A stretch of DNA of 58,882 nt from the NCBI GenBank assembly GCA_900299305.1, contig OMJJ01000119.1:1-58882 (forward strand), read 5' to 3'. The notes beneath the pieces are model-generated. The model was not told the origin of the DNA, did not search any database, and worked only from the letters and a program-made list of their open reading frames with translations. Position numbers and translations under genes: made by a program. Source of the stretch: a bacterium. Its GTDB lineage: Bacteria > Armatimonadota > Chthonomonadetes > Chthonomonadales > Chthonomonadaceae. Shown piece after piece: positions 4,751 to 27,262 of the stretch (positions are counted from its first letter, which is position 1; every line of letters starts with the position of its first letter).

Positions 4751-5455
4751 ATGAACTGGTGGCATGAGGAAGAACTTGTCTGGGCAGAGGGGTATACCTG
4801 TGCGGTAGGCATAGATGAGGCGGGGAGAGGGGCGTTGGCGGGTCCGGTTGTTGCCGCGTGTGTGGTGCTTCCGTACCGCTTTGCTCCTAGCGGTATCAAC
4901 GACTCTAAGCAACTCTCTGCTAGTCAGCGTGAAGAGCTCTTTACGGCAATTACGAAGGTAGCACGTGGTATCGGGGTGGGTGTGGTGGATGTTGCGACGA
5001 TTGAAGCGGTAAACATCCTTCGGGCAACACATATCGCCATGCGTCTCGCCGTACAAAACCTCCCCGCAGGACTCCAGCCCGACATCGCCCTGATTGATGG
5101 TCGCCCCGTGAAAGATTTTTCCCTCCCGCAAGTGGCACTGGTAAAAGGTGACGAGCGTTGCATCTCCATCGCCGCCGCCTCTATTATCGCAAAGGTCTCC
5201 CGCGATAGAATCATGACCGAACTCGATAGCGAGTACCCCGGCTATGGCTTCGCGGTACATAAGGGCTACGGCGTTCCCCTGCACCTCCGTGCCCTAAAAG
5301 AGCAAGGGGTATCCCCTATACACCGTCGTACTTTTCGCCCCGTGTTAGAGGCAAGTGGCGGCGTGATAAGTTTAGAAGACAAGAGAGAAAAAAGGTCTCA
5401 TGCCCGTTCAAACACTGGGACAACTCGGCGAAACCCTCGCCAAAAACTACCTTGA
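4751..5455 (+). CDS. rnhB: Ribonuclease HII
   Basis: GIDEAGRGALAGPVVAA, NDSKQLS and ASIIAKVSRD motifs. The Arg/Lys-rich C-terminal tail overlaps the next gene by 56 nt. Confidence 0.9.
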   Translation: MNWWHEEELVWAEGYTCAVGIDEAGRGALAGPVVAACVVLPYRFAPSGINDSKQLSASQREELFTAITKVARGIGVGVVDVATIEAVNILRATHIAMRLAVQNLPAGLQPDIALIDGRPVKDFSLPQVALVKGDERCISIAAASIIAKVSRDRIMTELDSEYPGYGFAVHKGYGVPLHLRALKEQGVSPIHRRTFRPVLEASGGVISLEDKREKRSHARSNTGTTRRNPRQKLP

Positions 5456-5774
5456 AACACACAAACTACAGATTATTAGTACAAACTATCACTCTCCTTA
5501 TGGCGAAATAGACATTATCGCAAAAGAGGGGGAGTGTTTTGTGTTTGTAGAGGTGAAAGCACGCAGTAACGTAAAGCGCGGAACTCCCTTAGAGGCGGTA
5601 ACGCCCCGCAAACGGGAGCGTATTCTGCTAACCGCGCAACACTGGCTTAGTACGCACCTTATGGGGAAAGAGGAGCCGCACCTCCGCTTTGATGTGCTTA
5701 GTATCGTCATGGGAAGCGACGGGCTATCTACCATTACGCACCACAAAAGCATCTTTGGAGAAGACACACTGTAG
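5400..5774 (+). CDS. YraN-family (UPF0102) endonuclease-like protein
   Basis: GE..A..YL......I...N......GEIDIIA.......FVEVKAR pattern. Conserved position after rnhB. Confidence 0.85.
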   Translation: MPVQTLGQLGETLAKNYLETHKLQIISTNYHSPYGEIDIIAKEGECFVFVEVKARSNVKRGTPLEAVTPRKRERILLTAQHWLSTHLMGKEEPHLRFDVLSIVMGSDGLSTITHHKSIFGEDTL

Positions 5775-5824
5775 CCTGTGGTAAAATACAAAAAATATAA
5801 AGCGAAACAGGAGGGCTTGGAACA

Positions 5825-6277
5825 TTGAACCTACCCCAAGAGATTGCAGAGGCTTGCGCCCCACTATTCGAGGCGTTGCCCTTAGAGAGAGCGATGGGAG
5901 AACTACTCGGCAGCCACCCCAAACAGACCGCTCTGGTAGAGAAGGTTTTGGCGAACCCCGTGCTATCAAATCGCCCCGAACTCTGCTCTGCCCTATGGCT
6001 CTATGTAGACGATTTAGAGCGAAGCCACACCATTAGCCAAAGCATAGATGGGGCAACCGGCTCCTATTGGCATGGGATTATGCACCGCAGAGAGGGCGAT
6101 TTTGGGAATAGCCGTTACTGGCATCGCCGAGCCACAGGACACCCCTTACTTGTGGGGCAACCGGAGGGTTTAGTAGGTGAGGTGGAGCGGGTTCGAGGCA
6201 AAAATCCTGCCGAACTGGTAGAAAAACAGAGGCAGGAGTGGCTTGCTTTGTTTGAGTGGTGCGCGAATACACCCTAA
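5825..6277 (+). CDS. Hypothetical protein
   Basis: 150-aa ORF with protein-like composition (HGIMHRREGDFGNSRYW motif). No family recognised and the start codon is uncertain. Confidence 0.5.
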   Translation: MNLPQEIAEACAPLFEALPLERAMGELLGSHPKQTALVEKVLANPVLSNRPELCSALWLYVDDLERSHTISQSIDGATGSYWHGIMHRREGDFGNSRYWHRRATGHPLLVGQPEGLVGEVERVRGKNPAELVEKQRQEWLALFEWCANTP

Positions 6278-6874: not shown

Positions 6875-8407
6875 CTATTTCCCTACTTCATGGAAGTGAC
6901 TCACACGGTTTCTCCCTCCCTTCTTCGAGCGATACAGAGCTTTGTCCGCCTCGTTTACCAACTCGGCAGTGGAACGGCTTCCCGCTCGCAAGGTAGAGAC
7001 CCCCAAACTAATCGTTATCTGGCGGTACTCTATAGGGAGAGCCTCTACCGCCGTCCGAATACGTTCTGCAACCACTATTGCCCCCTCTTTATCCGTTTGG
7101 GGGAGCACGGCGACAAACTCTTCGCCCCCGTATCGGGCAACGAAATCGGTGCCTCTTGCCGCTCTTTTTAGGGTAGAAGCGACCTGCTTTAATACCTCGT
7201 CCCCTGCCGGATGACCGAAATTGTCGTTGAACTCCTTAAACTTATCTACATCCAGCAACAAACCTGAGAGCGGCGCACCAGAACGCTTTGCCCCCATAAA
7301 CTCTTCTGCCAACCGCTCTTGAAACGAACGGTGATTGTTTAGCCCAGTCAAGCCATCCGTTATCGCCATAACCTCCAACTGCTGGTTGACCTGTAGCAAC
7401 TCCATCGCCTGTATCTCTATCTCTACCCGTGCTTCGTTCACGGCAAGAAAGTGCTGTTGTACCTGCTCTTCCATACGGCGGCGGTCAGTAATATCGGCGA
7501 AAGTGACCAAAACCCCGTTAGGCTTAGATTGCTCTGAACTGGAAAGAGGACTTGCATTCACGCTTATCCATGTTGTGTTGCCGTTTGGATGCACCACTCC
7601 CATAACAACATTATGCTGTGCCTTCCCTTGTGAACGAGCCACAGAGATAGGATAGTCGTCATCCTCCCACTTAGTTCCATCTTCGTGAATAACACTCCAG
7701 CCTGGGTCTACAAGAGAGGGATTTGCTATCTGATCCTGTGTTAAGCCTAGTATCTGTTCAGCGCGTTGATTACAAACGACGACTTCTTCCTTCGCGTTAT
7801 AGAGTACAAAACCCTCCTGCATCACATCTATCGCAATGCGGAACCGCTCTTCGCTCTCTGCTAACGCCGAGACCACACGTATATAGTCTCTAAGCGACTC
7901 CTCTTGCAAATCCGAGAGGCGGTGGATTTCCAACTGTGCCGCCGCCTCTCGCCCCAAAACTTTAAGCATCTCTAGTTGCATGGTGGAGAGGTTGCGGGGT
8001 TTGTTGTCAATGACACAGAGGCTTCCTAGTGGGTATCCCTCTGAGGAGAGTAGTGGTATGCCCGCATAGAAGCGAATGTTCGGTTCACCTGTCACCAGAG
8101 GGTTTTGAGCGAATCTCTCATCTTCTAGTGCATCCGGAACAACAAGCGTGTCTGTTTGTAGAATAGCATGAGCGCAGAAAGAGTGGTCTCGGTGGGTCTC
8201 GGTAGCCTCTAGCCCTACTCGTGACTTAAACCACTGTCTCGATTCATCTACAAGGCTAATAAGGGCAATAGGGGTTTCGCAAAACAGGGAAGCCAAACGA
8301 GTGATAGTGTCAAAGGCTTCTTCGGGTTGGGTGTCTAGGATGTGGTACTCTTGGAGCGCAGTCAGACGCTCGGCTTCATGGCGGGGTAGCGGTGCAGGCA
8401 TAATCAT
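6875..8407 (-). CDS. GAF-PAS-GGDEF diguanylate cyclase
   Basis: N-terminal GAF-like region, central PAS-like region, and a C-terminal GGDEF domain (DGLTGLNN ... RYGGEEF). Confidence 0.9.
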   Translation of the reverse strand: MIMPAPLPRHEAERLTALQEYHILDTQPEEAFDTITRLASLFCETPIALISLVDESRQWFKSRVGLEATETHRDHSFCAHAILQTDTLVVPDALEDERFAQNPLVTGEPNIRFYAGIPLLSSEGYPLGSLCVIDNKPRNLSTMQLEMLKVLGREAAAQLEIHRLSDLQEESLRDYIRVVSALAESEERFRIAIDVMQEGFVLYNAKEEVVVCNQRAEQILGLTQDQIANPSLVDPGWSVIHEDGTKWEDDDYPISVARSQGKAQHNVVMGVVHPNGNTTWISVNASPLSSSEQSKPNGVLVTFADITDRRRMEEQVQQHFLAVNEARVEIEIQAMELLQVNQQLEVMAITDGLTGLNNHRSFQERLAEEFMGAKRSGAPLSGLLLDVDKFKEFNDNFGHPAGDEVLKQVASTLKRAARGTDFVARYGGEEFVAVLPQTDKEGAIVVAERIRTAVEALPIEYRQITISLGVSTLRAGSRSTAELVNEADKALYRSKKGGRNRVSHFHEVGK

Positions 8408-12332: not shown

Positions 12333-12758
12333 ATGAAACGAAGTAGAAAAATAGGGCTGATAGCCCTCGTGTTGGTGTTATGCACGGGAGTAGTGGCTTC
12401 GGCGCAGTTGGGTTCTCTGTTCAAGGGGGGCGGTATCGCGTTTATCGTCTCGAAGTTTGGCAAAGACATCAACAAAGCCATTAACCGCCTTACGAAAACA
12501 GAAGACAAAACGGATACTTATGCCACAAAAGTAGTTCCTATTATCTCGGTGGGTAACGGGAAAGAGGCGGGTGCGTGTCAGATTATGGGGGCACCGGAAG
12601 CGGTGGAGAAGGTGGGGGCAGTAGCGCAGTTGGAAGGGGATTTTAGCATTGTGAAGGTGCGAATGCGCGGACTAATCCCCATTGAAGGCAAGGATGTAAG
12701 CCACTTAAAGCGCGTGGTGGGCGTGGGAGTAAGCGGTTTGCTAGATATTAAACTTTAA
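12333..12758 (+). CDS. Secreted hypothetical protein
   Basis: Signal peptide MKRSRKIGLIALVLVLCTGVVASAQ at the internal ATG 12333. No family recognised. Its 3-prime end overlaps the convergent operon by 11 bp. Confidence 0.5.
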   Translation: MKRSRKIGLIALVLVLCTGVVASAQLGSLFKGGGIAFIVSKFGKDINKAINRLTKTEDKTDTYATKVVPIISVGNGKEAGACQIMGAPEAVEKVGAVAQLEGDFSIVKVRMRGLIPIEGKDVSHLKRVVGVGVSGLLDIKL

Positions 12759-13758
12759 TGCTGAAGGAACTGTAAAAAATGGCATGAGTGCGGCGCAACA
12801 CGTTTCCTTGATAGCGGTAGCCCCCCATACCGTGTTCAATGTGGTGGTATTTATATGCCTTCTCTGGAGTCTCTGGTCTTATGGGAGGGCGAGGGGTAGG
12901 GTCATTTTCTATTTCGCCTGCCTTTTGCGAAGTCACTCCGGCTATGCCTTCGATACGCGTTATCCCTCGCTCCTCTATCTCTTTCTTACGCTGGTTTTGT
13001 ACAAAAAGGATGGCGGCTTGCATCTCTTGGAGCGTTTTGGAGTCGGTACTCTTTTTGAGGGCTGGAGAGAAGACAGGGCTGAAATAGAGGGCGGTATCCA
13101 ATTTGCGAAAATCGTTCTCTTGCCAATGTTGAGGGTTGGTCTTAGCAAAAGAGTCCCATTCCGCAACAAGTGTGTTGTAGCCCTGTTGTAGCAGAGTAAG
13201 GAGGGGCTGTATCTCCAACTCTGCTTTGTTTTGCATCAGGTTTTGTAGGGCTATCAAGCCATTTTCCCACGCACTCGTCTTTATTTCAAATGCGCTTTTC
13301 GTGGGGAGTATTTTTTGGGGGGCAGGAGGCTCTTTGGCTTTTTGGCGTTCTACCTCCCATTTTTGAAAGTGCAAATCTATCTCCGCAAGCCGTGCTAGAG
13401 TTGCTTTAAGAAGAAACTGTGTCTCGTTTTGTTGCTTTACAATCTGCTCTAAGGAGTTCGTAACGGTTTCCAGATTGGTGTTCGATTTTACTCCCTCTAA
13501 TGCCTCCAAAAGGGTTTGCGACTGACTTTGTAGGGTTGCCTCTATTGAGTTTACCCATAGAGGGCGTTTCGATTCTAAGATGCGCTCTGTCTGTTGCCCA
13601 ATTTGGCGCACTGTACTCTCCGCATCGTCGTCCTCTTCAATGTCGTTGTGCGTTGCATCCAGAAGACGGCTACGGAGTTCGCGCACTTGTGATGCAACTG
13701 CAAAAACCCCAAACAGTAGCAACACGGAAAGAATAGTAGGAATCCAGTCAAGTGTCAT
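12748..13758 (-). CDS. Membrane-anchored coiled-coil protein with GrpE-like C-terminus (paralog 2)
   Basis: N-terminal TM helix (IPTILSVLLLFGVFAVA) and a long Q/E/L-rich helical region. C-terminal RGITRIEG ... GGYRYQGNVLRRTHAIFY resembles the GrpE beta-domain (E. coli QKGYTLNGRTIRAAMVTV). AAGGAG RBS is present. Paralogous to 13777-15114. Confidence 0.5.
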   Translation of the reverse strand: MTLDWIPTILSVLLLFGVFAVASQVRELRSRLLDATHNDIEEDDDAESTVRQIGQQTERILESKRPLWVNSIEATLQSQSQTLLEALEGVKSNTNLETVTNSLEQIVKQQNETQFLLKATLARLAEIDLHFQKWEVERQKAKEPPAPQKILPTKSAFEIKTSAWENGLIALQNLMQNKAELEIQPLLTLLQQGYNTLVAEWDSFAKTNPQHWQENDFRKLDTALYFSPVFSPALKKSTDSKTLQEMQAAILFVQNQRKKEIEERGITRIEGIAGVTSQKAGEIENDPTPRPPIRPETPEKAYKYHHIEHGMGGYRYQGNVLRRTHAIFYSSFSIKV

Positions 13759-13776: not shown

Positions 13777-15114
13777 TTAGGATTGTGGCTCGCTTTTGCG
13801 GTAGTAGAGGGCATGGGTGGGTTGGTTGGCAATAACTTGTCCGTTATACTCATAACCTGCCCTACCCGGCACAATTCTATAGAACCGATACTCCAACTTC
13901 TCTTCTGGGGCAGGAATACGGAGCCTGTCATTTTGAGCATCTGCTTCTATTCTGCCCGGTGACATTCGGGAGGCGGTGGTCTCTTTTGCCGCTTGCTCTC
14001 CTATGCGATAGATACCGCGCTTTGCCAACTGCCGCTGTGCCTGTTGTTGTATTTGCTGAACCGTTTCGTGGAGTTGCGCCCAGTTCTTCGAGAGTGCAGG
14101 TGTCCAATCGCCTGTATCGACCTTGAATTCGCTGTAGAGTGCTCTGTCTAGGGGTTCTATATCGGTAGCGTTCCACTGTGTAGGGGATATTTTGGCGAGT
14201 TCATTCCAGCGTCCTACACTAAAGAAGGTGTATGTGTTACGAATCTGCGCCTCGATATCCGGAGCCGCCTGCTCTAGTTTTATCTTCAGTTTGGAGTACT
14301 CCATTTGAGTCACCCAACTCTCCATCAGCGATTCCCAAGTCGGCGCGAGGGTTGTGGATGAAGAGGGTACAAGACTAGGGCTATCCTGAATCGTTTTCGG
14401 TTCGGTAGCTTCTTTCTGTTGTTGAAGGAGAGCGTCTATTTTTGCGTACAGAGGTTGGATTGTGTCCTTGATTATCTTCTGCACATCTTCTTTTGAGAGG
14501 GCTTCGGGGGTAGAACGGTGAGGCTCAGAAGAGATTTCTTTGCTAAGGGGTATCTCCTGTTTCGCCCCAGCCTGTTCTTCTGCCCACAAGAGCATCATCT
14601 GAAGTCTTTCTGAGAGTTGTTCTACCTGGGTAGCAAGTGGTTGAAGTGCATCGAGTTGTTTGGCGACTGCTTGCCTCTCTTCTCCCTCAAGTTGCTTAAT
14701 GTTGGTTATGGCAACCTCCACTTTTGAGGCTACTTTGCCTATCTCTGGGTTGATACCATCCGCAAAATCATCTACAACAGTAGCGAGATTGTCTATGAGC
14801 CTCTTAACATCGTCATATCTTTTTGACATTTCTTCCACTATCTGCTCTCTGTGAGCCAGTAGCACCGCTTGCCATGCTACTTCTAACTGATTGGCATAAT
14901 CTCTGTGTACTCTGTCTACTATGATATACACAAGCACCACAATAAATACAAGTGAACTCATGGCTCCGAGTGCCGCCCACTTGTTGATTAGCCATGCGGC
15001 AAACTCCGTGCAGACTAACAGAGTTGCCAAAAAAATGAGCGGTTTTACAAAAGTAGGAGGCGGAGGAGTTTGCGTCTCTTCTTTTTGGGGTGGCATAGCT
15101 TGGGCTCCTAACAT
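13777..15114 (-). CDS. Membrane-anchored coiled-coil protein with GrpE-like C-terminus (paralog 1)
   Basis: Two N-terminal TM helices and a long coiled coil. C-terminal LAKRGIYRIGE ... AGYEYNGQVIANQPTHALYY is GrpE-like. The likely true start is ATG 15096, preceded by AGGAG. Confidence 0.5.
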   Translation of the reverse strand: MLGAQAMPPQKEETQTPPPPTFVKPLIFLATLLVCTEFAAWLINKWAALGAMSSLVFIVVLVYIIVDRVHRDYANQLEVAWQAVLLAHREQIVEEMSKRYDDVKRLIDNLATVVDDFADGINPEIGKVASKVEVAITNIKQLEGEERQAVAKQLDALQPLATQVEQLSERLQMMLLWAEEQAGAKQEIPLSKEISSEPHRSTPEALSKEDVQKIIKDTIQPLYAKIDALLQQQKEATEPKTIQDSPSLVPSSSTTLAPTWESLMESWVTQMEYSKLKIKLEQAAPDIEAQIRNTYTFFSVGRWNELAKISPTQWNATDIEPLDRALYSEFKVDTGDWTPALSKNWAQLHETVQQIQQQAQRQLAKRGIYRIGEQAAKETTASRMSPGRIEADAQNDRLRIPAPEEKLEYRFYRIVPGRAGYEYNGQVIANQPTHALYYRKSEPQS

Positions 15115-15129
15115 GGGGCTATGGTGGTG

Positions 15130-17553
15130 CTACATGATAACAATGTCGTCTTCTCTTCCTTGATATTGAGGATAGTTAATTATCAGATGAAGGTGAGCAT
15201 CTGGGCGATAGTGAAGGTGAATGCCCATCCGCAAGTCTACCGTCAAGCCTTGTCTATCCACAATCGTATCTTCGTAGAGGTGGTACTCTCTCTCTTCTCC
15301 CTCTATCTTTAGGCGCGTATATACGGTTATTGTCCCCGTTTGCTTACGAGATAAGATAACCGTATGCTCGTCGGACTCGGTGTTTACAGAGCAACCTGCC
15401 CGTATCAGAGAGGGTTCGTCTAGGTTATGAGAGGCAGACGTGAAGCGAACACCAATAGTAAATGGAAAGTTATCAGTGGAGTCTACCAGTGGGCTAAGGG
15501 TGGCTCCCCGCGCTACGTTTAGAGTATAAAACGGGGTGGCAGTGCCTTGCTGAGAAGCGACTTGTGGAGGTTTTGGAAGATAGCGTATCCCTGTAAACAG
15601 TCTTCTTACCCTCTCTACTACACAGGGGATAAACGTACTGCCTCCGGTAAGGCAGAGCCATTTTACTCTGGGGATTTCTCTCATTTTGTCGCGTAGGGAG
15701 GGGTATGCCTCCTTAAAATGGACACGCTTGAGTACGGTATTTACCCCATGTTCCCCCTCTTCGGGAAGCAGGATGGGGTAGGTGTCGGACTCGGTGATAC
15801 CTATCTCTAACATTTTATGTAGGTACTCATTGTAGAGCGAGGCGATTAGGCTCCATGAGACGACTGCCCCCTCTCCAAAGGTATCCGGTGCATTTAACTC
15901 TACTCTCGAATCTTGCCTCAAGCGGGTTTCATCTGGGGGAAAAGAGAGTTTTTCTTTGGCGCGTCGAATATCGTCTACAAAAGCGGTATGACTATATTCG
16001 TCGGGCTTTTTGGGAGAGTTCTCCATAATACGTTCGGCGAGGAGTGCGTCTACAAGGTCGCCCCCTATGGGAAACCCTAATCTAAGGTGTCGCTTAAACT
16101 GATATACCCCTTGCGACTGCGTTATCTCCAAAATACAGATGTCGGTAGTTCCTGCCCCCGAATCGAAGACACAGATGTAGTCGCCGTCGTGCAGGTCGGT
16201 CATACCCCACTGTTCGTGGTGATACAGAAAGTCGATAGCGGCGGCTTCTGGCTCTGATAGGGTCTCTATCTTGTGTCTGGGGAACCCCGCTAGTTCGGCG
16301 GCATCGAGTGTCCTCTCTCTCTGCTCATTGAACTGGATTTCGTTTCCCAATACGGGTAGGCTCATTACTACCCGTGCGTTACTAAAAGGGTCTTTGCCGT
16401 TAAAGAGGGGCTTACTCTGTAGCTCTTGATAGAGGAAGGTAAGAAAGTCGGTGACAACCTCTGGGGCGGTATAGGTTCGGGCCGTGGCTTCGTGCGGGTA
16501 CTCGGTGTCGCTAGAGAGAAGTTTTTTCACAGAGCGAATCACGAGGGAGTCGGAGGTAACACTCGCGGGTACTTCCCATCCAAAGAGGGGTGGGTCTCCT
16601 ATGGCGGGAGGGTACATGACTACCGAAGGCAGACTTTGGCGACTGTTGTTCCACTCTATAGGGATAAGTGTTTCGGGTGCGTTGAGGTTATCTATCACAA
16701 AGACCGCGCTTTTATAGGTTCCAAAGTCTATTCCGATAATCCAACGCTCTCTCGGTTTTTCGAGGGGTTTGGGGTACTGAGCAAACAGCACGACCTCTTG
16801 CGGCGTAGTAAAGCCCAACCCCGACACCTTGAGTTTGCCGTTATACCTCTCTCTACCATATTCATACGGGGGAGGCGTGATGGAGATGTGCCGCCTTTCC
16901 CGTGCGTCAATGGTAAGCGTCCCTTTGGTTTGTACGCCTACCCCCTCCTGTTCGATACGGAAATCGCCCTCTGTTACCTCTAGGGTGATGTCGTCTTCTG
17001 CATCTCCTTCGTTATGTAGGCAGAGCGATTGGGACTGGTGGGGGCTACGGAAAATCAGGGTTTTGCTCAGAACAAAGGTGGGGCCCAAACGCTTACGCTC
17101 TAGAGTGGCACGTACCTGCATCTCGGAATGTACATCCATGTTGGCAGGTCGGAATATCTCGTCGGGGTCGTCGGTTAGCGGTTCGCGGGTGTTGGTGTCT
17201 AGGGTAAAGCAGATATCCTTTGCCTCTTCGGGTACTGCGTTGGGTAGCAGGTCAAATTTCCAAACGAATCGCGGGTTTTTGGCGGAGAGCGGGGCAGGGT
17301 TATTAACGGCTTGGGTCGATTGTACCCCCGCCGGTAAGTTGCTGAAAGCAAAGCGTATACTGCCTGCCCCCTCATGCGTTAGCATTACCGTACAGGGCGT
17401 AGGGGTATACCCAATGAGGACAATGGGGTCTGGGGTAATCGTCGCGATCACTTTTCCCAACGACCATCCGCAGTATACACAGAACTGAATATCGTCGTCA
17501 TCGGGATTATAGGATGTTTTTTTGCAGTGGTGGCAAAACGCGAACGTGTTCAT
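15130..17553 (-). CDS. Hsp70/DnaK-like ATPase with N-terminal zinc ribbon and beta-rich insert
   Basis: CHHC...CVYC zinc ribbon (aa 7-28), then about 240 aa of beta-rich sequence. Actin-fold ATPase motifs follow: IIGIDFGTYKS (phosphate 1), LSEPEAAAI, VFDSGAGTTD (phosphate 2) and LTGGSTFIP (adenosine). The short C-terminal beta domain resembles a lidless substrate-binding domain. Confidence 0.8.
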   Translation of the reverse strand: MNTFAFCHHCKKTSYNPDDDDIQFCVYCGWSLGKVIATITPDPIVLIGYTPTPCTVMLTHEGAGSIRFAFSNLPAGVQSTQAVNNPAPLSAKNPRFVWKFDLLPNAVPEEAKDICFTLDTNTREPLTDDPDEIFRPANMDVHSEMQVRATLERKRLGPTFVLSKTLIFRSPHQSQSLCLHNEGDAEDDITLEVTEGDFRIEQEGVGVQTKGTLTIDARERRHISITPPPYEYGRERYNGKLKVSGLGFTTPQEVVLFAQYPKPLEKPRERWIIGIDFGTYKSAVFVIDNLNAPETLIPIEWNNSRQSLPSVVMYPPAIGDPPLFGWEVPASVTSDSLVIRSVKKLLSSDTEYPHEATARTYTAPEVVTDFLTFLYQELQSKPLFNGKDPFSNARVVMSLPVLGNEIQFNEQRERTLDAAELAGFPRHKIETLSEPEAAAIDFLYHHEQWGMTDLHDGDYICVFDSGAGTTDICILEITQSQGVYQFKRHLRLGFPIGGDLVDALLAERIMENSPKKPDEYSHTAFVDDIRRAKEKLSFPPDETRLRQDSRVELNAPDTFGEGAVVSWSLIASLYNEYLHKMLEIGITESDTYPILLPEEGEHGVNTVLKRVHFKEAYPSLRDKMREIPRVKWLCLTGGSTFIPCVVERVRRLFTGIRYLPKPPQVASQQGTATPFYTLNVARGATLSPLVDSTDNFPFTIGVRFTSASHNLDEPSLIRAGCSVNTESDEHTVILSRKQTGTITVYTRLKIEGEEREYHLYEDTIVDRQGLTVDLRMGIHLHYRPDAHLHLIINYPQYQGREDDIVIM

Positions 17554-21658: not shown

Positions 21659-21979
21659 TTAAGCGTCTAGGCGTGGGCATTTCAGCCAGAAGTAGGCAAG
21701 CAGTCCTCCAAAGAGGGCTACCAGTAGAAGCGTATTGAGTAGAGCCATCATATCCCCCGCCCAGAACGCAAGGTACTCTGTGTGTGGAGAGGAGACAAGA
21801 ATCATATAGAGCAGTAGCCCCCATAACCCTGCCGTCCATGCGTAGCGAATGGCATCGGAGGGAGAGAGTTTACACAGGCGCAAAAAGAGGGGATATAGTA
21901 GTAGATAGACCAGCAAAAATGTTGCCGCAAACTCGATGAAGAGCCAAAGCAACGCATTGGGATTTGTAACAAGTAGCAT
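21659..21979 (-). CDS. Small integral membrane protein (about 3 TM helices)
   Basis: 106 aa from ATG 21979, with an AAGGAG RBS 9 nt upstream. Hydrophobic throughout. The longer track ORF (to 22105) would overlap the vWA gene. Confidence 0.6.
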   Translation of the reverse strand: MLLVTNPNALLWLFIEFAATFLLVYLLLYPLFLRLCKLSPSDAIRYAWTAGLWGLLLYMILVSSPHTEYLAFWAGDMMALLNTLLLVALFGGLLAYFWLKCPRLDA

Positions 21980-22002
21980 CGTTTCTTTCTCCTTACTGAT
22001 AC

Positions 22003-23397
22003 TTACTGGCACACATTGTTTTGAGTGCGCGGAACTACCTGTTCCGTGCTGGGCTTGGGTTGATAGAACAGAGCAAAAAAGATAAAAACTCCCATGGCGG
22101 CCCAACAGGCAATCTGCCTGAATTTGAGGTTCGTGGCTGTGGCGGCAGTGCTTGCTCCGAGTGTGAAGTCGAGTTCTACTTCTATGCCGTTTCGGGGAAT
22201 GAGGTAGAGCCGTGTGAGTGCTTCATACGGAAGCGTAACAGGCTCGGTATGTTCTAGGTATCTGTTTTCGCTTAGGAGTTTTATGTCGGGGTGCACCTTT
22301 TCCAAGAGGCACTCGCCGGTAGTCCCTTCGCTCAGAGAGAGGGTGAGCAGGAGTTCTGGGATAAGTGTTTTGCCCTGTGCCCCTAGGGATAGGGGGAGGT
22401 AGATGTCGTATGGGTTGCTTGGTTTGGCACTAGACTCACACGCAAAGATTCGGATACTCTGATTTTCTGCCGTTAAGGTGCGTGGCAGCGCGTTTCGAGA
22501 GTCGGCGCGGAGCGTGACGCTGGTTTTCAATCGCTTGGTTCCTTGCCTAGACTGAACCGCGAAAAACCCCAACACTCCCGCAACTATAACAGCCAACACT
22601 TTCACAGGAGTTGCGGAAGGGGTAGTACTTACCTCGTAGGGAGTGTCGTTGGTGAGGAGTATCTGATTACGCACTTCGATAACGCTCTGTTTCCCTTTTG
22701 CCTCTGCCTCTATTGCCCACAGTATGAAATAGGTGAGCGACTTTTTGTCTTCTCCTATGCGATCTATACGGGTCTCTTTCATGCCGTTTTCGCTGGTAGT
22801 AAGGCTTTTTAGAGCTTCCCGATAGGCGTTTTCGTTGCCGTTGGTTCCAGCGGTTCCTTTTTTGTGGGTAATCAGCACTGCAACAACGCGGTGGTACTTG
22901 TCTTCTTTTTGGATACGGCTGGCTTGTACCATCAGTTGGTTCCGTGCCTCGTAGTAGCTGTCTTGCACCGCAGATTTGGGGGCGGTAAAGAGGGTATTCA
23001 GGCGACCCCCAAACATTTCGCGGTCATTAAACTCTTTGTTACTAATCTCACCGGGGGCAAGTTGTACCGCGGTATCGAAGTGGTAGAGGGTAAGCCTATC
23101 TTTAGCGGTAAGGAAGTTGCTTCCAATACGTATTAACGCCCACTGCACATCGTTAAGGGGAGTGCCGTGCATTCCTCTAGCGGTATCGACCATAAGGACG
23201 AGGTGGAGTGGATACTTGCAGGGGTTTACCTCTTTTGCAAAGGTTTTAGAAAGAAGTGCCTCGTACAGTTTGTACTGCTCTTGTGCGGAAGCATCAGCAC
23301 GGCAACGCAGGGGTACACCGCCCATCAGAAGGCAGAGCAACAGGGTACTCCAAAGAGGCGCGGGGTATGCGGTTTTCCGTAGAGAGCGTAGTAGCAT
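22003..23397 (-). CDS. vWA-domain membrane protein
   Basis: Signal peptide, then a vWA fold start HLVLMVDTARGMHGTPL (DxSxS degenerated to DTARG). A TM helix follows (VLAVIVAGVLGFFAV), then an about 150-aa domain and a C-terminal TM helix. Confidence 0.7.
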   Translation of the reverse strand: MLLRSLRKTAYPAPLWSTLLLCLLMGGVPLRCRADASAQEQYKLYEALLSKTFAKEVNPCKYPLHLVLMVDTARGMHGTPLNDVQWALIRIGSNFLTAKDRLTLYHFDTAVQLAPGEISNKEFNDREMFGGRLNTLFTAPKSAVQDSYYEARNQLMVQASRIQKEDKYHRVVAVLITHKKGTAGTNGNENAYREALKSLTTSENGMKETRIDRIGEDKKSLTYFILWAIEAEAKGKQSVIEVRNQILLTNDTPYEVSTTPSATPVKVLAVIVAGVLGFFAVQSRQGTKRLKTSVTLRADSRNALPRTLTAENQSIRIFACESSAKPSNPYDIYLPLSLGAQGKTLIPELLLTLSLSEGTTGECLLEKVHPDIKLLSENRYLEHTEPVTLPYEALTRLYLIPRNGIEVELDFTLGASTAATATNLKFRQIACWAAMGVFIFFALFYQPKPSTEQVVPRTQNNVCQ

Positions 23398-25261: not shown

Positions 25262-27262
25262 ATGATATTTCTGCCCTTCTTTGTAGATGACCCTAGTGAT
25301 ACCATCAGAAACACCTACCCTCATACTCTGTTTGCCCTAGAGCATCGAGAGCGTTTTCGTAATGTGATATCCCGTATAGACAACGATTCCAGCCGGCTAG
25401 GAATGGTAAGCTATGCCTGGCCCGAACTCCGCACCACCTGCCAAAAGGTGTTTGCTTATAAGTGCGCTTTCTGTGAACGTGCTTTACACCAAGAAGAGGA
25501 GCAGACTCTTACCTACTGGCGGCCTTCTGGATATACTGCCAACCCCTCGACAGGGGTTGTTGAGGGAGGGCAGTATCCATGGCTACAGAATGAGGCACGC
25601 AATGTCTACTATGCTTGTGCCGCCTGTATCGCCGCCAAAGGACACTATTTTCCTATCTGGGGTACGAGACAGGTACCCGGGTCAGATTGGGAAAAGTGCC
25701 GTGACGAGAAGCCACGGCTACTTGCTCCTTATGAAGAGAATCCCAACGCCCACCTTATTTTTGAGAGCGATGGAACGGTAAATTCAAATACAAAAAAAGG
25801 AGTGGCTACCATCACTACCTTTGACCTGAATAGGGAGTCGCTAGTAATAGAACGCCAAAGTGCCTACCAGCAGGTGTATAACTGGCTTGACACCTATACC
25901 GAGAGTAGCCGCGATGCGGAGTTCCAGTTGCGTGGGCTACTGGATATTATGCAACCCTTTGCCATGTGCAAGCGGCAAGCCTTGCGGCAATATACCGAAG
26001 AGAGGCTAAAGCAGGACAAACTTACCCCCTTCCATGAACAGTGGCGAAATACCATTATTGAGCAGGATGAAGCGATACTAGCCGCTACACAAAAGATATA
26101 CCTTAGCCCCATTGTGCCAATGTCGGATTCGGATGTAGAGACCAAGATGTTAGGGGACACTACCCCCATTCTCAAAAAAGTGGTCATTACAAATTTTCGA
26201 GGAATTAAATCGCTTACCATTACCATGCCAGACGCAAAAACTCCTCGTAGTAGGACTTATCGTACCGAACTGGGGCGGCTCTCTGCTTCGTATAATGAAT
26301 CCTCTCCAGAGACGTGTGTACCCAGCATGGTGCTGCTAGGGGAAAATGGTGCCGGCAAGACCGATGTGCTACAAGCCATTGCGCTTGCACTTCTCTCAGA
26401 CCAGCATCGGAATCAGAGCTTGTTACATCTCCCTCCATACAACGAACTACTGCACAAAGGGGAATCGAAAGGCAAGATAGAGGTTGATATGAGTACGGGA
26501 ACCTTTCAGTTTGAGTTTACGGCAAGCGGTGGCACTCAAAAGTATATACCTCATAGAACAGGACACCCCACTCCCCCAGTAGTGGTATTGGGTTACGGAA
26601 CCTTCCGCGACATTTTACTCGAAAACAGAAGGGCGGAAGGGGAACCGTTTCCCATCTGTAATCTATTCGATAACCAAGATGCTCTGCTTAAAGTAAAGTG
26701 GAACCCCGATGAGATTGAAGAGGTACTCAAGATGGCGATGCGCCTTGTCCCCAATGCCGTCCTTCGTTTTACTGCAGCATTCGGAGCAGAGATACAGGAT
26801 ATTAGAGTGGAGCATTGCGACGATGGAGAGATACCCCCGCATCACCACTCCAACGGACATCGGACCGTCGTCTTTTTGGTATGCGATATCATTCATAAAC
26901 TACTCCACTTCGCAAAACAGTCATCCGCACTAAGCCTCTCAAAACAGATACGCTTCACAAAGGCAGTGATACTTATCGACGAACTAGAGTCACATCTCCA
27001 TGTAAGTTGGAAACGTGAGATTATGCCGCGGCTTCGGGAGGAGTTTCCCCAAGTGTCATTTATCGTAACGACCCAAGACCCATTTTTAACGCTCTCCATG
27101 AACAAGGACGAAGTACTACGTCTGTACCGACAAAAGAATGGAGAGATTGGACAAGAGCCTATCAACTGTGAGGAAATCCGTACTACTACCCTTGAGGAGA
27201 TAATGGACACGGATGCCTTTGGGACACCAGAAGGCTGGTATGATACCCTTATTACTGATTAG
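25262..27262 (+). CDS. Fusion protein: N-terminal HNH-like (TIGR02646/PtuB-like) domain plus C-terminal ABC/AAA_15-type ATPase (PtuA-like)
   Basis: N-terminus CAFCE...TYWRP...NVYYACAACIAAKG..FP...LLAPYEENPNAHLIFESDG follows the TIGR02646 HNH layout. C-terminus has Walker A LLGENGAGKTD, Walker B VILIDELESHLH and a FIVTTQDP switch. Confidence 0.65.
   Translation: MIFLPFFVDDPSDTIRNTYPHTLFALEHRERFRNVISRIDNDSSRLGMVSYAWPELRTTCQKVFAYKCAFCERALHQEEEQTLTYWRPSGYTANPSTGVVEGGQYPWLQNEARNVYYACAACIAAKGHYFPIWGTRQVPGSDWEKCRDEKPRLLAPYEENPNAHLIFESDGTVNSNTKKGVATITTFDLNRESLVIERQSAYQQVYNWLDTYTESSRDAEFQLRGLLDIMQPFAMCKRQALRQYTEERLKQDKLTPFHEQWRNTIIEQDEAILAATQKIYLSPIVPMSDSDVETKMLGDTTPILKKVVITNFRGIKSLTITMPDAKTPRSRTYRTELGRLSASYNESSPETCVPSMVLLGENGAGKTDVLQAIALALLSDQHRNQSLLHLPPYNELLHKGESKGKIEVDMSTGTFQFEFTASGGTQKYIPHRTGHPTPPVVVLGYGTFRDILLENRRAEGEPFPICNLFDNQDALLKVKWNPDEIEEVLKMAMRLVPNAVLRFTAAFGAEIQDIRVEHCDDGEIPPHHHSNGHRTVVFLVCDIIHKLLHFAKQSSALSLSKQIRFTKAVILIDELESHLHVSWKREIMPRLREEFPQVSFIVTTQDPFLTLSMNKDEVLRLYRQKNGEIGQEPINCEEIRTTTLEEIMDTDAFGTPEGWYDTLITD

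Follow-up and report, generated by a model that had tools for sequence, protein, structure and literature searches.

The 58,882-nucleotide stretch analysed here (the window, 58.9 kb) is contig OMJJ01000119.1 of a bacterium of the Armatimonadota family Chthonomonadaceae (assembly GCA_900299305.1). It encodes an 807-amino-acid (aa) Hsp70-like protein in a gene cluster that also encodes a tubulin-like protein of the FtsZl1/Tubulin_2 family (PF13809). Hsp70s are generally considered to be J-protein-dependent, both for targeting and for stimulation of their ATPase. We propose that the Hsp70-like protein is a self-contained, J-independent chaperone or clamp dedicated to the membrane-associated FtsZl1 cluster, a reading to which we give a probability of about 55%. 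The new element is located directly downstream, where membrane-anchored coiled-coil proteins most probably bear a divergent GrpE-like C-terminal module (C-module). A conserved family without lid, linker motif, J-contact residues and linked J-protein, yet with a dedicated GrpE-like partner, would be a natural test of the J-dependence rule, and the Hsp70-like/GrpE-like ATPase pair provides a biochemical entry point to FtsZl1/Tubulin_2 systems.

Family membership and domain architecture of the Hsp70-like protein

The protein belongs to the Hsp70 family and not to MreB/ParM or the sugar kinases. All three actin-fold ATPase motifs named in the original prediction were located in the open reading frame (ORF), GIDFGT at aa 274-279, DSGAGTTD at aa 464-471 and LTGGSTFIP at aa 635-643; FPFTIGVRF occupies aa 696-704 and the C-terminal end reads ...HLHLII. 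The Pfam HSP70 profile (PF00012) matches with 49.1 bits against a gathering cut-off of 20.6 (E 3.6e-13), the match spanning aa 301-522 and covering only profile positions 26-249 of 599. The top NCBIfam models are HscA and DnaK, whose equivalog cut-offs are missed widely (68.5 versus 620 bits for the HscA subfamily, 41.5 versus 648 for DnaK), and the same database gave a weak match to the BeeR actin-like family (E 1e-4). In a sequence search of the PDB, DnaK nucleotide-binding domains (NBDs) were the best matches (E 4e-10). The close family is small, forming only 12 clusters at 90% identity among 5.8 billion proteins, and its 12 members can be aligned end to end at 27-53% identity. An AlphaFold2 (AF2) model built on this 12-sequence alignment has a mean predicted local distance difference test score (pLDDT) of 84, and when compared with the PDB using Foldseek it retrieved solely Hsp70s, the best being the truncated DnaK 7kru_B (E 9.7e-24). 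The original prediction had named two outcomes that would speak against it, placement in another actin-fold family and a J domain in a neighbouring product; hidden Markov model (HMM) searches, the AF2 model and the J-domain scans described below gave neither.

The ATPase is predicted to be active because the counterparts of its catalytic residues are invariant across the family. Positions corresponding to DnaK D8, T11, E171, D194, T199, D201 and G341/G342 do not vary among the 12 members. K343 is likewise invariant, and the PDB-search alignment places it opposite the DnaK catalytic lysine (presumably K70). It should be noted that a MAFFT alignment of the family with Escherichia coli DnaK is misaligned beyond approximately DnaK residue 345 and has a gap at K70. 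This alignment was used solely for catalytic sites that agree with the PDB-search and family alignments, and the J-contact positions discussed below were read from the latter two.

The N-terminus carries the CxxC...CxxC zinc ribbon that had been predicted. C25, C28, G29 and W30 of the ribbon are nearly invariant in the family, and the alignment covers the ribbon in 10 of the 12 close homologues; the other two have shorter N-termini, P0011 retaining the second CxxC only and P0012 starting past the ribbon. It is also found in 11 more distant relatives. The beta-rich insert of about 240 aa described in the original prediction is resolved by AF2 into two Ig-like sandwiches, but these approximately 230 residues come after the ribbon and ahead of the ATPase, as an N-terminal extension, and are not inserted within the ATPase itself. 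Pfam gave no significant match in the N-terminal 265 residues of the five members scanned, where all zinc-ribbon and Ig-like matches were sub-threshold. For example, aa 173-242 of the second Ig-like domain (about 16828-17037 in the window) match Cep192_D4 non-significantly (E 0.095), and the equivalent domain of one homologue matches FixG_C non-significantly (E 0.15). Domain 4 of Cep192 is an ASH/PapD-like sandwich of a centrosomal protein, and the two matches are a lead on the type of sandwich only. That the ribbon and the two sandwiches derive from DnaJ, namely from its zinc-finger and C-terminal domains, was also considered and is not claimed, there being no Pfam DnaJ_C or DnaJ_CXXCXGXG match.

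At the other end of the protein, the AF2 model shows a short coil after the NBD, followed by eight strands within aa 700-805 (106 residues). The helical lid (the alpha part of the substrate-binding domain, SBD) is missing, as had been claimed: the model is free of helix past aa 689, and the chain stops at aa 807, two residues beyond the eighth strand. The VLLL linker motif (VLLLD in DnaK) was not found in the protein, and the spacing from RGA to FPFT is 11 residues (TLSPLVDSTDN), versus 18 in DnaK from GAA to TPLS. The 50 best Foldseek matches of the model are all chains containing both NBD and SBD, with 567-625 aligned columns. NBD-only crystal structures, some of which were seen in the PDB sequence search, are absent from these 50, and therefore the C-terminal domain contributes to the score at the position of the beta part of the SBD (SBD-beta); these are whole-chain alignments in which the residue ranges of the matches are not visible. 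The original prediction had likened this region to SBD-beta. At the level of the fold, AF2 and Foldseek agree with that resemblance, whereas sequence profiles were negative. In this model the domain is SBD-beta-like in fold and position, and homology is likely.

GrpE-like downstream proteins and the lack of a linked J-protein

The two genes that follow the Hsp70-like gene encode proteins of 445 and 336 aa. Each ends in the conserved C-module of approximately 170 aa, with the consensus LDxALY ... GxxRIE ... PGxGGYRxxGxVLxPTxAxxY, which resembles the GrpE motifs IDSLDRAL, FGVEVI and KGYxLxGRxxRxAxVxV. The module is rare, and an exhaustive HMMER search of 1.84 billion proteins found only 51 representatives. 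For comparative purposes, 32 related loci were fetched with flanks of up to 10 kb each (L009 duplicates L003 and L011 duplicates L005). A GrpE-like gene comes after the Hsp70-like gene in 13 of 13 distinct Armatimonadota loci with downstream flank, and the order Tubulin_2, trypsin, Hsp70-like, GrpE-like is repeated in the 10 distinct loci nearest in sequence.

Because several individually weak tests agree, we consider the C-modules to be, with good confidence, divergent GrpE domains. The Pfam GrpE profile (PF01025) has no match in the 445-aa and 336-aa proteins of the window. Sub-threshold matches occur in 4 of 49 C-module family members (best E 0.025), and in the two members examined individually these fall at profile positions 72-161 of 165, the C-terminal register. 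When 31 C-modules were compared using hhalign with three authentic GrpEs (that of E. coli, taken from its genome, and Geobacillus GrpE and human GRPEL1, taken from PDB alignments), the probability was 54% (E 1.3e-4); a different column setting gave 64% (E 6.6e-5) and covered GrpE residues 99-189. The pairing sets IDSLDRAL of GrpE against IEPLDRALY of the C-module and KGYxLxGRxxRxA against GGYRxxGxVLxPT. Against E. coli GrpE alone the expected motifs were also aligned, at a probability of just 4-5%, so that all three GrpEs were needed to reach 54-64%. A more diverse GrpE profile could not be drawn from a database search with E. coli GrpE, since its best 120 matches were all enterobacterial and 88-99% identical. 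A large-database search with one of the family alignments (A3) returned a single protein.

Gene position and bridging sequences point the same way. A GrpE HMM was run over the 4306 ORFs of the related loci, and three of its top four matches are encoded directly downstream of an Hsp70-like gene, a position occupied by only about 30 of those ORFs. A GrpE hallmark is kept in two of the proteins, as FDPxxHE in L027 and LDPxxHE in L031; these bridging sequences gave hhalign probabilities of 43% against GrpE and 49% against the Armatimonadota C-module, in the same register. An AF2 model of the C-module built on a three-sequence alignment (pLDDT 65) has GrpEL1 (9blt_C) as its top PDB match, with an E-value of 1.1 and a probability of 0.10. 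The GrpE-like label first given to these proteins is thus strengthened by hhalign, by the sub-threshold Pfam matches, by the HMM ranking and by Foldseek. Their description as ectodomains has to be revised, the prediction being that the modules form the C-terminal ends of membrane-anchored proteins and lie on the cytoplasmic side. This topology is predicted because three basic residues follow the transmembrane (TM) helix of the 336-aa protein, and because the homologues in L001, L002 and L004 have a hydrophobic signal-like start and an extra region before the TM helix located ahead of the coiled coil.

A J-domain HMM made from six sequences detected no J domain in any six-frame ORF of the window (best E 1.6) or among the ORFs of the 32 related loci (best E 0.31). 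Likewise, Pfam revealed no DnaJ in the eight proteins of the cluster or in ten proteins encoded on its flanks. The claim that the operon contains no J-protein therefore holds for the window and extends to its relatives. R167, N170 and T173 of DnaK contact the J domain, as established by DnaK/DnaJ genetics and structure 5NRO. The corresponding positions in the Hsp70-like protein are E430, S433 and E436, so that the charge is reversed at the R167 position; none of the 12 members keeps the DnaK residues, and the positions vary within the family.

The FtsZl1/Tubulin_2 cluster and its relatives

The cluster consists of eight co-directional, tightly packed genes running from 24913 to 12748, of which the Hsp70-like gene is the sixth and the GrpE-like genes are the seventh and eighth (Table 1). 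The stop codon of the protease gene lies 2 nucleotides ahead of the Hsp70-like start codon, and the Hsp70-like gene is probably translationally coupled with this upstream gene and with the GrpE-like gene downstream.

Table 1. Genes of the cluster and domains of the Hsp70-like protein, in window coordinates.
Feature	Position	Strand	Description and basis
Gene 1, 500 aa	23411..24913	(-)	Double zinc ribbon and beta-rich region, no TM helix; Pfam DZR sub-threshold, E 0.012
Gene 2, 464 aa	22003..23397	(-)	Signal-peptide-like N-terminus, possible degenerate vWA, TM helix, ~145 cytoplasmic residues, second TM helix; sequence and TM scan
Gene 3, small membrane protein	21659..22105	(-)	Two predicted TM helices; TM scan
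Gene 4, FtsZl1/Tubulin_2, 1085 aa	18368..21625	(-)	GGGTGSG, C-terminal CxxC...CxxxxC ribbon; Pfam Tubulin_2, 123.7 bits vs cut-off 27
Gene 5, trypsin/HtrA-like serine protease, 284 aa	17556..18410	(-)	One TM helix, Ser/Thr-rich N-terminal tail; Pfam Trypsin_2, 85 bits, and NCBIfam HtrA-family
Gene 6, Hsp70-like	15130-17553	(-)	Intact 807-codon ORF, ATG start
Hsp70-like, C4 zinc ribbon, aa 1-31	17461..17553	(-)	C7xxC10 ... C25xxC28; direct sequence reading
Hsp70-like, first beta-sandwich (Ig-like), aa 34-120	17194..17454	(-)	AF2, block pLDDT about 76-92
Hsp70-like, second beta-sandwich (Ig-like), aa 143-260	16774..17127	(-)	AF2, strands 143-259, block pLDDT about 82-95
Hsp70-like, NBD, aa 270-690	15484..16746	(-)	Catalytic motifs intact; Pfam HSP70, PDB DnaK NBD matches, Foldseek
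Hsp70-like, eight-strand beta domain, aa 697-807	15133..15465	(-)	At SBD-beta position and size; AF2, Foldseek
Gene 7, 445 aa	13777..15114	(-)	Two TM helices, long coiled coil, GrpE-like C-module (about aa 280-445, window 13780-14277); TM scan, family alignments A3/A7, hhalign
Gene 8, 336-aa paralogue	12748..13758	(-)	N-terminal TM anchor, coiled coil, GrpE-like C-module (about aa 165-336, window 12751-13266); C-module alignment with 445-aa protein

The 500-aa protein has homologues in L002, L004, L006, L012 and L013 and no match among PDB sequences; at a guess, its beta-rich region is a propeller. The 464-aa protein is probably vWA-like. Its own motif of the metal ion-dependent adhesion site type is degenerate, with VDTARG replacing DxSxS, and it has no Pfam or PDB match. 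Its positional homologue in L004, to which it is tied by phmmer (E 8e-6), has sub-threshold matches to VWA and VWA_2 (E 0.003-0.005). The small membrane protein has homologues of 103-111 aa in L001, L003, L006 and L012-L014. The TTG start listed for it lies approximately 100 nucleotides inside the end of the upstream gene, and its true start is probably an internal ATG further downstream (…KETMLLV…). The His/Asp/Ser triad of the protease is intact (TNRHV, NDFAIL and GFSGGP).

Because the 464-aa protein has a signal peptide, its vWA-like domain is probably outside the cell, where it could not touch a cytoplasmic Hsp70. The vWA-like and protease domains are both predicted to be extracytoplasmic, which makes them unlikely direct activators of the Hsp70-like ATPase; the original prediction had suggested stimulation by the tubulin-like or vWA protein. 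The Ser/Thr-rich tail of the protease, about 50 residues long (TTSSSTTTTTATTKTAAK), precedes the single TM helix; if cytoplasmic, it would be an extended segment reachable by the Hsp70-like clamp. Cys4 ribbons are present in three cytoplasmic proteins of the cluster, at the C-terminus of the tubulin-like protein (CKTC...CNNVEC), as a double ribbon at the N-terminus of the 500-aa protein and at the N-terminus of the Hsp70-like protein, and could serve as a common docking element.

Full-length relatives of the Hsp70-like protein are found only in Armatimonadota, namely in Chthonomonas, Chthonomonadales, Capsulimonadaceae, Fimbriimonadaceae and Armatimonadia, a distribution that by itself points to this phylum as the most probable source of the window. 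One close relative of the cluster is in a metagenome-assembled genome assigned to Chthonomonas calidirosea, a species with a cultured type strain. Across the related loci, the trypsin-like gene is conserved either as the direct upstream neighbour of the Hsp70-like gene or two genes away on that side. L001 (7251-9913, + strand) and L006 (7205-9915, + strand) have two extra genes between protease and Hsp70-like gene, whose products are a TM protein with a coiled coil (about 630 aa) and an OmpA-like protein (about 260 aa; E 5e-5); the latter fits the OmpA component reported for FtsZl1 operons. In L006, a metagenomic locus, a second, truncated Hsp70-like paralogue (15856-17313, + strand; Pfam HSP70 E 3e-5; phmmer against the window protein E 2.7e-63) follows a 997-aa GrpE-like gene, and the Hsp70-like/GrpE-like pair can therefore be duplicated. 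Transposase genes (Y1_Tnp and DDE_Tnp_1, at 762-1208, 5001-5840 and 14529-15659) lie inside and beside the cluster of L002, on a contig of 3.5 Mb, and one of them separates the vWA-like from the tubulin-like gene.

More distantly related proteins, 790-830 aa long, are present in Burkholderiales, Vulcanimicrobiota, Selenomonadaceae and Fimbriimonas and carry an N-terminal CxxC...CxxC ribbon approximately 250 residues before the NBD. A Tubulin_2 gene is found at about 3-9 kb in six of the distant-relative loci. Judged from these sequences, the association between the Hsp70-like protein and FtsZl1 is older and wider than the Armatimonadota family, because ribbon-bearing distant relatives are also near Tubulin_2 genes. 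At three loci in Vulcanimicrobiota and Burkholderiales (L022 8813-10180, L024 11708-13066 and L029 3856-5205, all + strand) the Hsp70-like gene is followed by a gene that is not GrpE-like. Its conserved product of about 450 aa has a beta-rich, repeat-like C-terminus (…SCSPTGERFSFLCEM…YYG…GRYLCRDEE…) and may correspond to the 500-aa product of the first gene in the window.

Two neighbours of the cluster in the window should also be mentioned. A 666-aa Septu PtuA-like defence ATPase (25262-27262, + strand; E 5e-90) is its divergent neighbour; the N-terminal part of this protein also matches PtuB models, and the gene looks like a known anti-phage gene that may be a fusion. Approximately 4 kb past the other end lies a GAF-PAS-GGDEF diguanylate cyclase (6875-8407, - strand; GGDEF E 1e-46), with unrelated-looking peptidase genes and a PhyH dioxygenase gene in between.

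Proposed mechanism, alternatives and known systems

In the proposed mechanism, the GrpE-like proteins would act as dimeric nucleotide-exchange factors on the cytoplasmic face of the membrane, the two paralogues of the window possibly forming a heterodimer. Tethered in this way, the dimers would provide both membrane localisation and resetting of the ATPase. The zinc-ribbon/Ig module would take over, in cis, the targeting role of a J-protein and bring the ATPase to a fixed partner, most plausibly the tubulin-like protein, which also bears a ribbon, or the cytoplasmic tails of the membrane components. An extended segment of the partner would be bound and released rapidly by the lidless beta domain, and ATP turnover could drive assembly, disassembly or gating of a tubulin-like/membrane complex. 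A more specific version can be put forward only tentatively: a J-free Hsp70 machine with cis targeting and a tethered, long-stalked GrpE homo- or heterodimer, in which the clamp remodels an FtsZl1 polymer at the cytoplasmic membrane. If true, this would be a prokaryotic example of a tubulin-superfamily cytoskeleton regulated by a chaperone, and the first functional handle on FtsZl1 systems. The complex may serve either envelope or membrane remodelling or a conflict with invaders; the PtuA-like neighbour and the L002 transposases hint at defence.

Several observations weigh against a dedicated, J-independent clamp. Each GrpE signal is individually sub-significant, and C-module profiles of 6 or 31 sequences searched against PDB sequences gave coiled-coil noise and no GrpE. 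The SBD-beta assignment stands on one AF2 model and the whole-chain Foldseek alignments. Comparison of the C-terminal domain by hhalign with DnaK, or with a four-sequence SBD-beta alignment, gave probabilities of 0.2-1.5%, and a profile of the domain recovered no Hsp70 from the PDB sequences. The vWA-like and protease domains, being predicted to lie outside the cytoplasm, cannot be direct clients. Furthermore, a housekeeping DnaJ encoded elsewhere in the host could act in trans, since the window comprises only 58.9 kb. This last point leads to the view that the protein is an ordinary client-folding paralogue of the HscA/HscC type that relies in trans on the general DnaJ and GrpE of the host, and that its place in the cluster is incidental or just co-regulatory. 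To our knowledge every bacterium encodes DnaJ somewhere, and the NBD is nearest to the HscA and DnaK models. Even so, we regard such a paralogue as improbable: scores fall far under all equivalog cut-offs (68 versus 620 bits), lid and VLLL linker are both lacking, the J-contact residues are replaced, with reversal of charge at the R167 position, and linkage to GrpE-like and Tubulin_2 genes stays strict among deeply diverged sequences, at identities as low as 27% and lower.

Still less probable, to the point of being hardly credible, is a non-chaperone scaffold or filament ATPase of the actin fold, with an Hsp70-like NBD and with beta domains that serve as oligomerisation or adhesion modules. 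The Hsp70 NBD does lie within the actin/ASKHA (acetate and sugar kinases, Hsc70, actin) fold, there is the weak BeeR match, and multimeric HSP70 assemblies have been the subject of speculation (PMC7159879). However, the best matches in sequence and structure are all Hsp70 and not MreB, ParM or actin; the succession of NBD, short linker and eight-strand beta domain is the Hsp70 domain order; and a dedicated GrpE-like partner makes sense solely in an Hsp70-type nucleotide cycle. Of greater weight, though we still think it rather unlikely, is that the cluster is a regulated anti-invader system as described by Kaur, Burroughs, Iyer and Aravind (PMC7159879). The Hsp70-like/GrpE-like pair would then be a nucleoside triphosphate-dependent thresholding switch, and the tubulin-like polymer and trypsin-like protease would be effector or processing parts, so that the mechanism of the Hsp70 is unchanged and its purpose differs. 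Consistent with this, the GTPase-centred systems in that study recruit tubulin, or HSP70 with GrpE, alongside vWA, trypsin and zinc-ribbon components; the PtuA-like ATPase adjoins the cluster divergently, the distribution over phyla is sparse and patchy, transposase genes lie at the L002 cluster, and the protease generically matches protease components of defence systems. On the other hand, this generic trypsin fold is the only match of the cluster proteins to a known defence family in PADLOC, a single neighbouring defence gene is weak evidence, the DO-GTPase/GAP1 core is lacking, and gene content and order are fairly stable within Armatimonadota, unlike those of fast-swapping effector modules. 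A J-independent clamp serving the FtsZl1 cluster thus remains our preferred reading, and the comparisons below are made with it in mind.

FtsZl1 was defined in 2010 by Makarova and Koonin (PMC2875224), who described operons in which it is accompanied by vWA and OmpA-like proteins, kinases and a novel GTPase, and who proposed a membrane-remodelling machine. We found no functional study of FtsZl1/Tubulin_2 proteins since that description, and our literature search on FtsZl1/Tubulin_2 with Hsp70 found no paper describing the Hsp70-like family. Hsp70, GrpE and proteases are not mentioned in the text of the 2010 paper. Its supplementary neighbourhood tables list a COG0443 DnaK-like protein of Magnetospirillum magneticum (amb2961, 1626 aa) and a COG0576 GrpE-like protein of Chloroflexus aggregans (Cagg_1315, 1083 aa), entries that support genomic linkage by placing DnaK and GrpE in FtsZl1 neighbourhoods of two other phyla, as well as a Do-type protease adjoining the FtsZl1 gene in Gemmata. 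The present cluster resembles those FtsZl1-vWA neighbourhoods (PMC2875224) in its FtsZl1 of about 1000 aa with GGGTGSG, its adjacent, probably vWA-like signal-peptide/TM protein, its lineage-specific membrane proteins and, at two related loci, its OmpA-like gene. It differs from them in having neither the GTPase nor protein kinases and in having Hsp70-like, GrpE-like and trypsin genes as a fixed core.

The DO-GTPase/GAP1 conflict systems of Kaur et al. 2020 (PMC7159879) comprise a theme with tubulin and vWA and a non-overlapping theme with HSP70, GrpE and fused DnaJ; the HSP70 components are sometimes without a peptide-binding domain. The GAP1-N2 type of these systems resembles the cluster in its use of tubulin-family proteins, or of HSP70 with GrpE, alongside vWA, zinc-ribbon, trypsin and TM components. 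In contrast to them, tubulin, Hsp70-like and GrpE-like proteins co-occur here and DnaJ is missing, and whereas the described systems are from Firmicutes and Actinobacteria, the cluster is from Armatimonadota. Their DO-GTPase/GAP1 core is also absent: Pfam and NCBIfam detected no P-loop GTPase family in the eight cluster proteins, in scans without a GAP1 model.

With the DnaK-DnaJ-GrpE and HscA/HscB systems the Hsp70-like protein shares a full catalytic NBD and a beta domain at the SBD-beta position, and with DnaK-DnaJ-GrpE also an adjacent GrpE-like gene, the product of which combines a long stalk of helix with a beta domain at its C-terminus. Unlike both, it is without the lid, the VLLL linker and a J-protein at the locus, its J-contact residues are replaced, and it has approximately 265 extra N-terminal residues forming the ribbon and two Ig-like domains. 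Compared with canonical GrpE, its GrpE-like partners are much longer, are anchored in the membrane and do not reach the Pfam GrpE threshold. Ssz1 of the yeast ribosome-associated complex, which is among the Foldseek matches (6sr6 and 5mb9), is an Hsp70 with a shortened substrate-binding region that serves one stable complex rather than general folding. Unlike the Hsp70-like protein, Ssz1 binds the J-protein Zuotin and has neither a zinc-ribbon/Ig extension nor a dedicated GrpE, and the evolutionary link between the two is no closer than the Hsp70 family as a whole.

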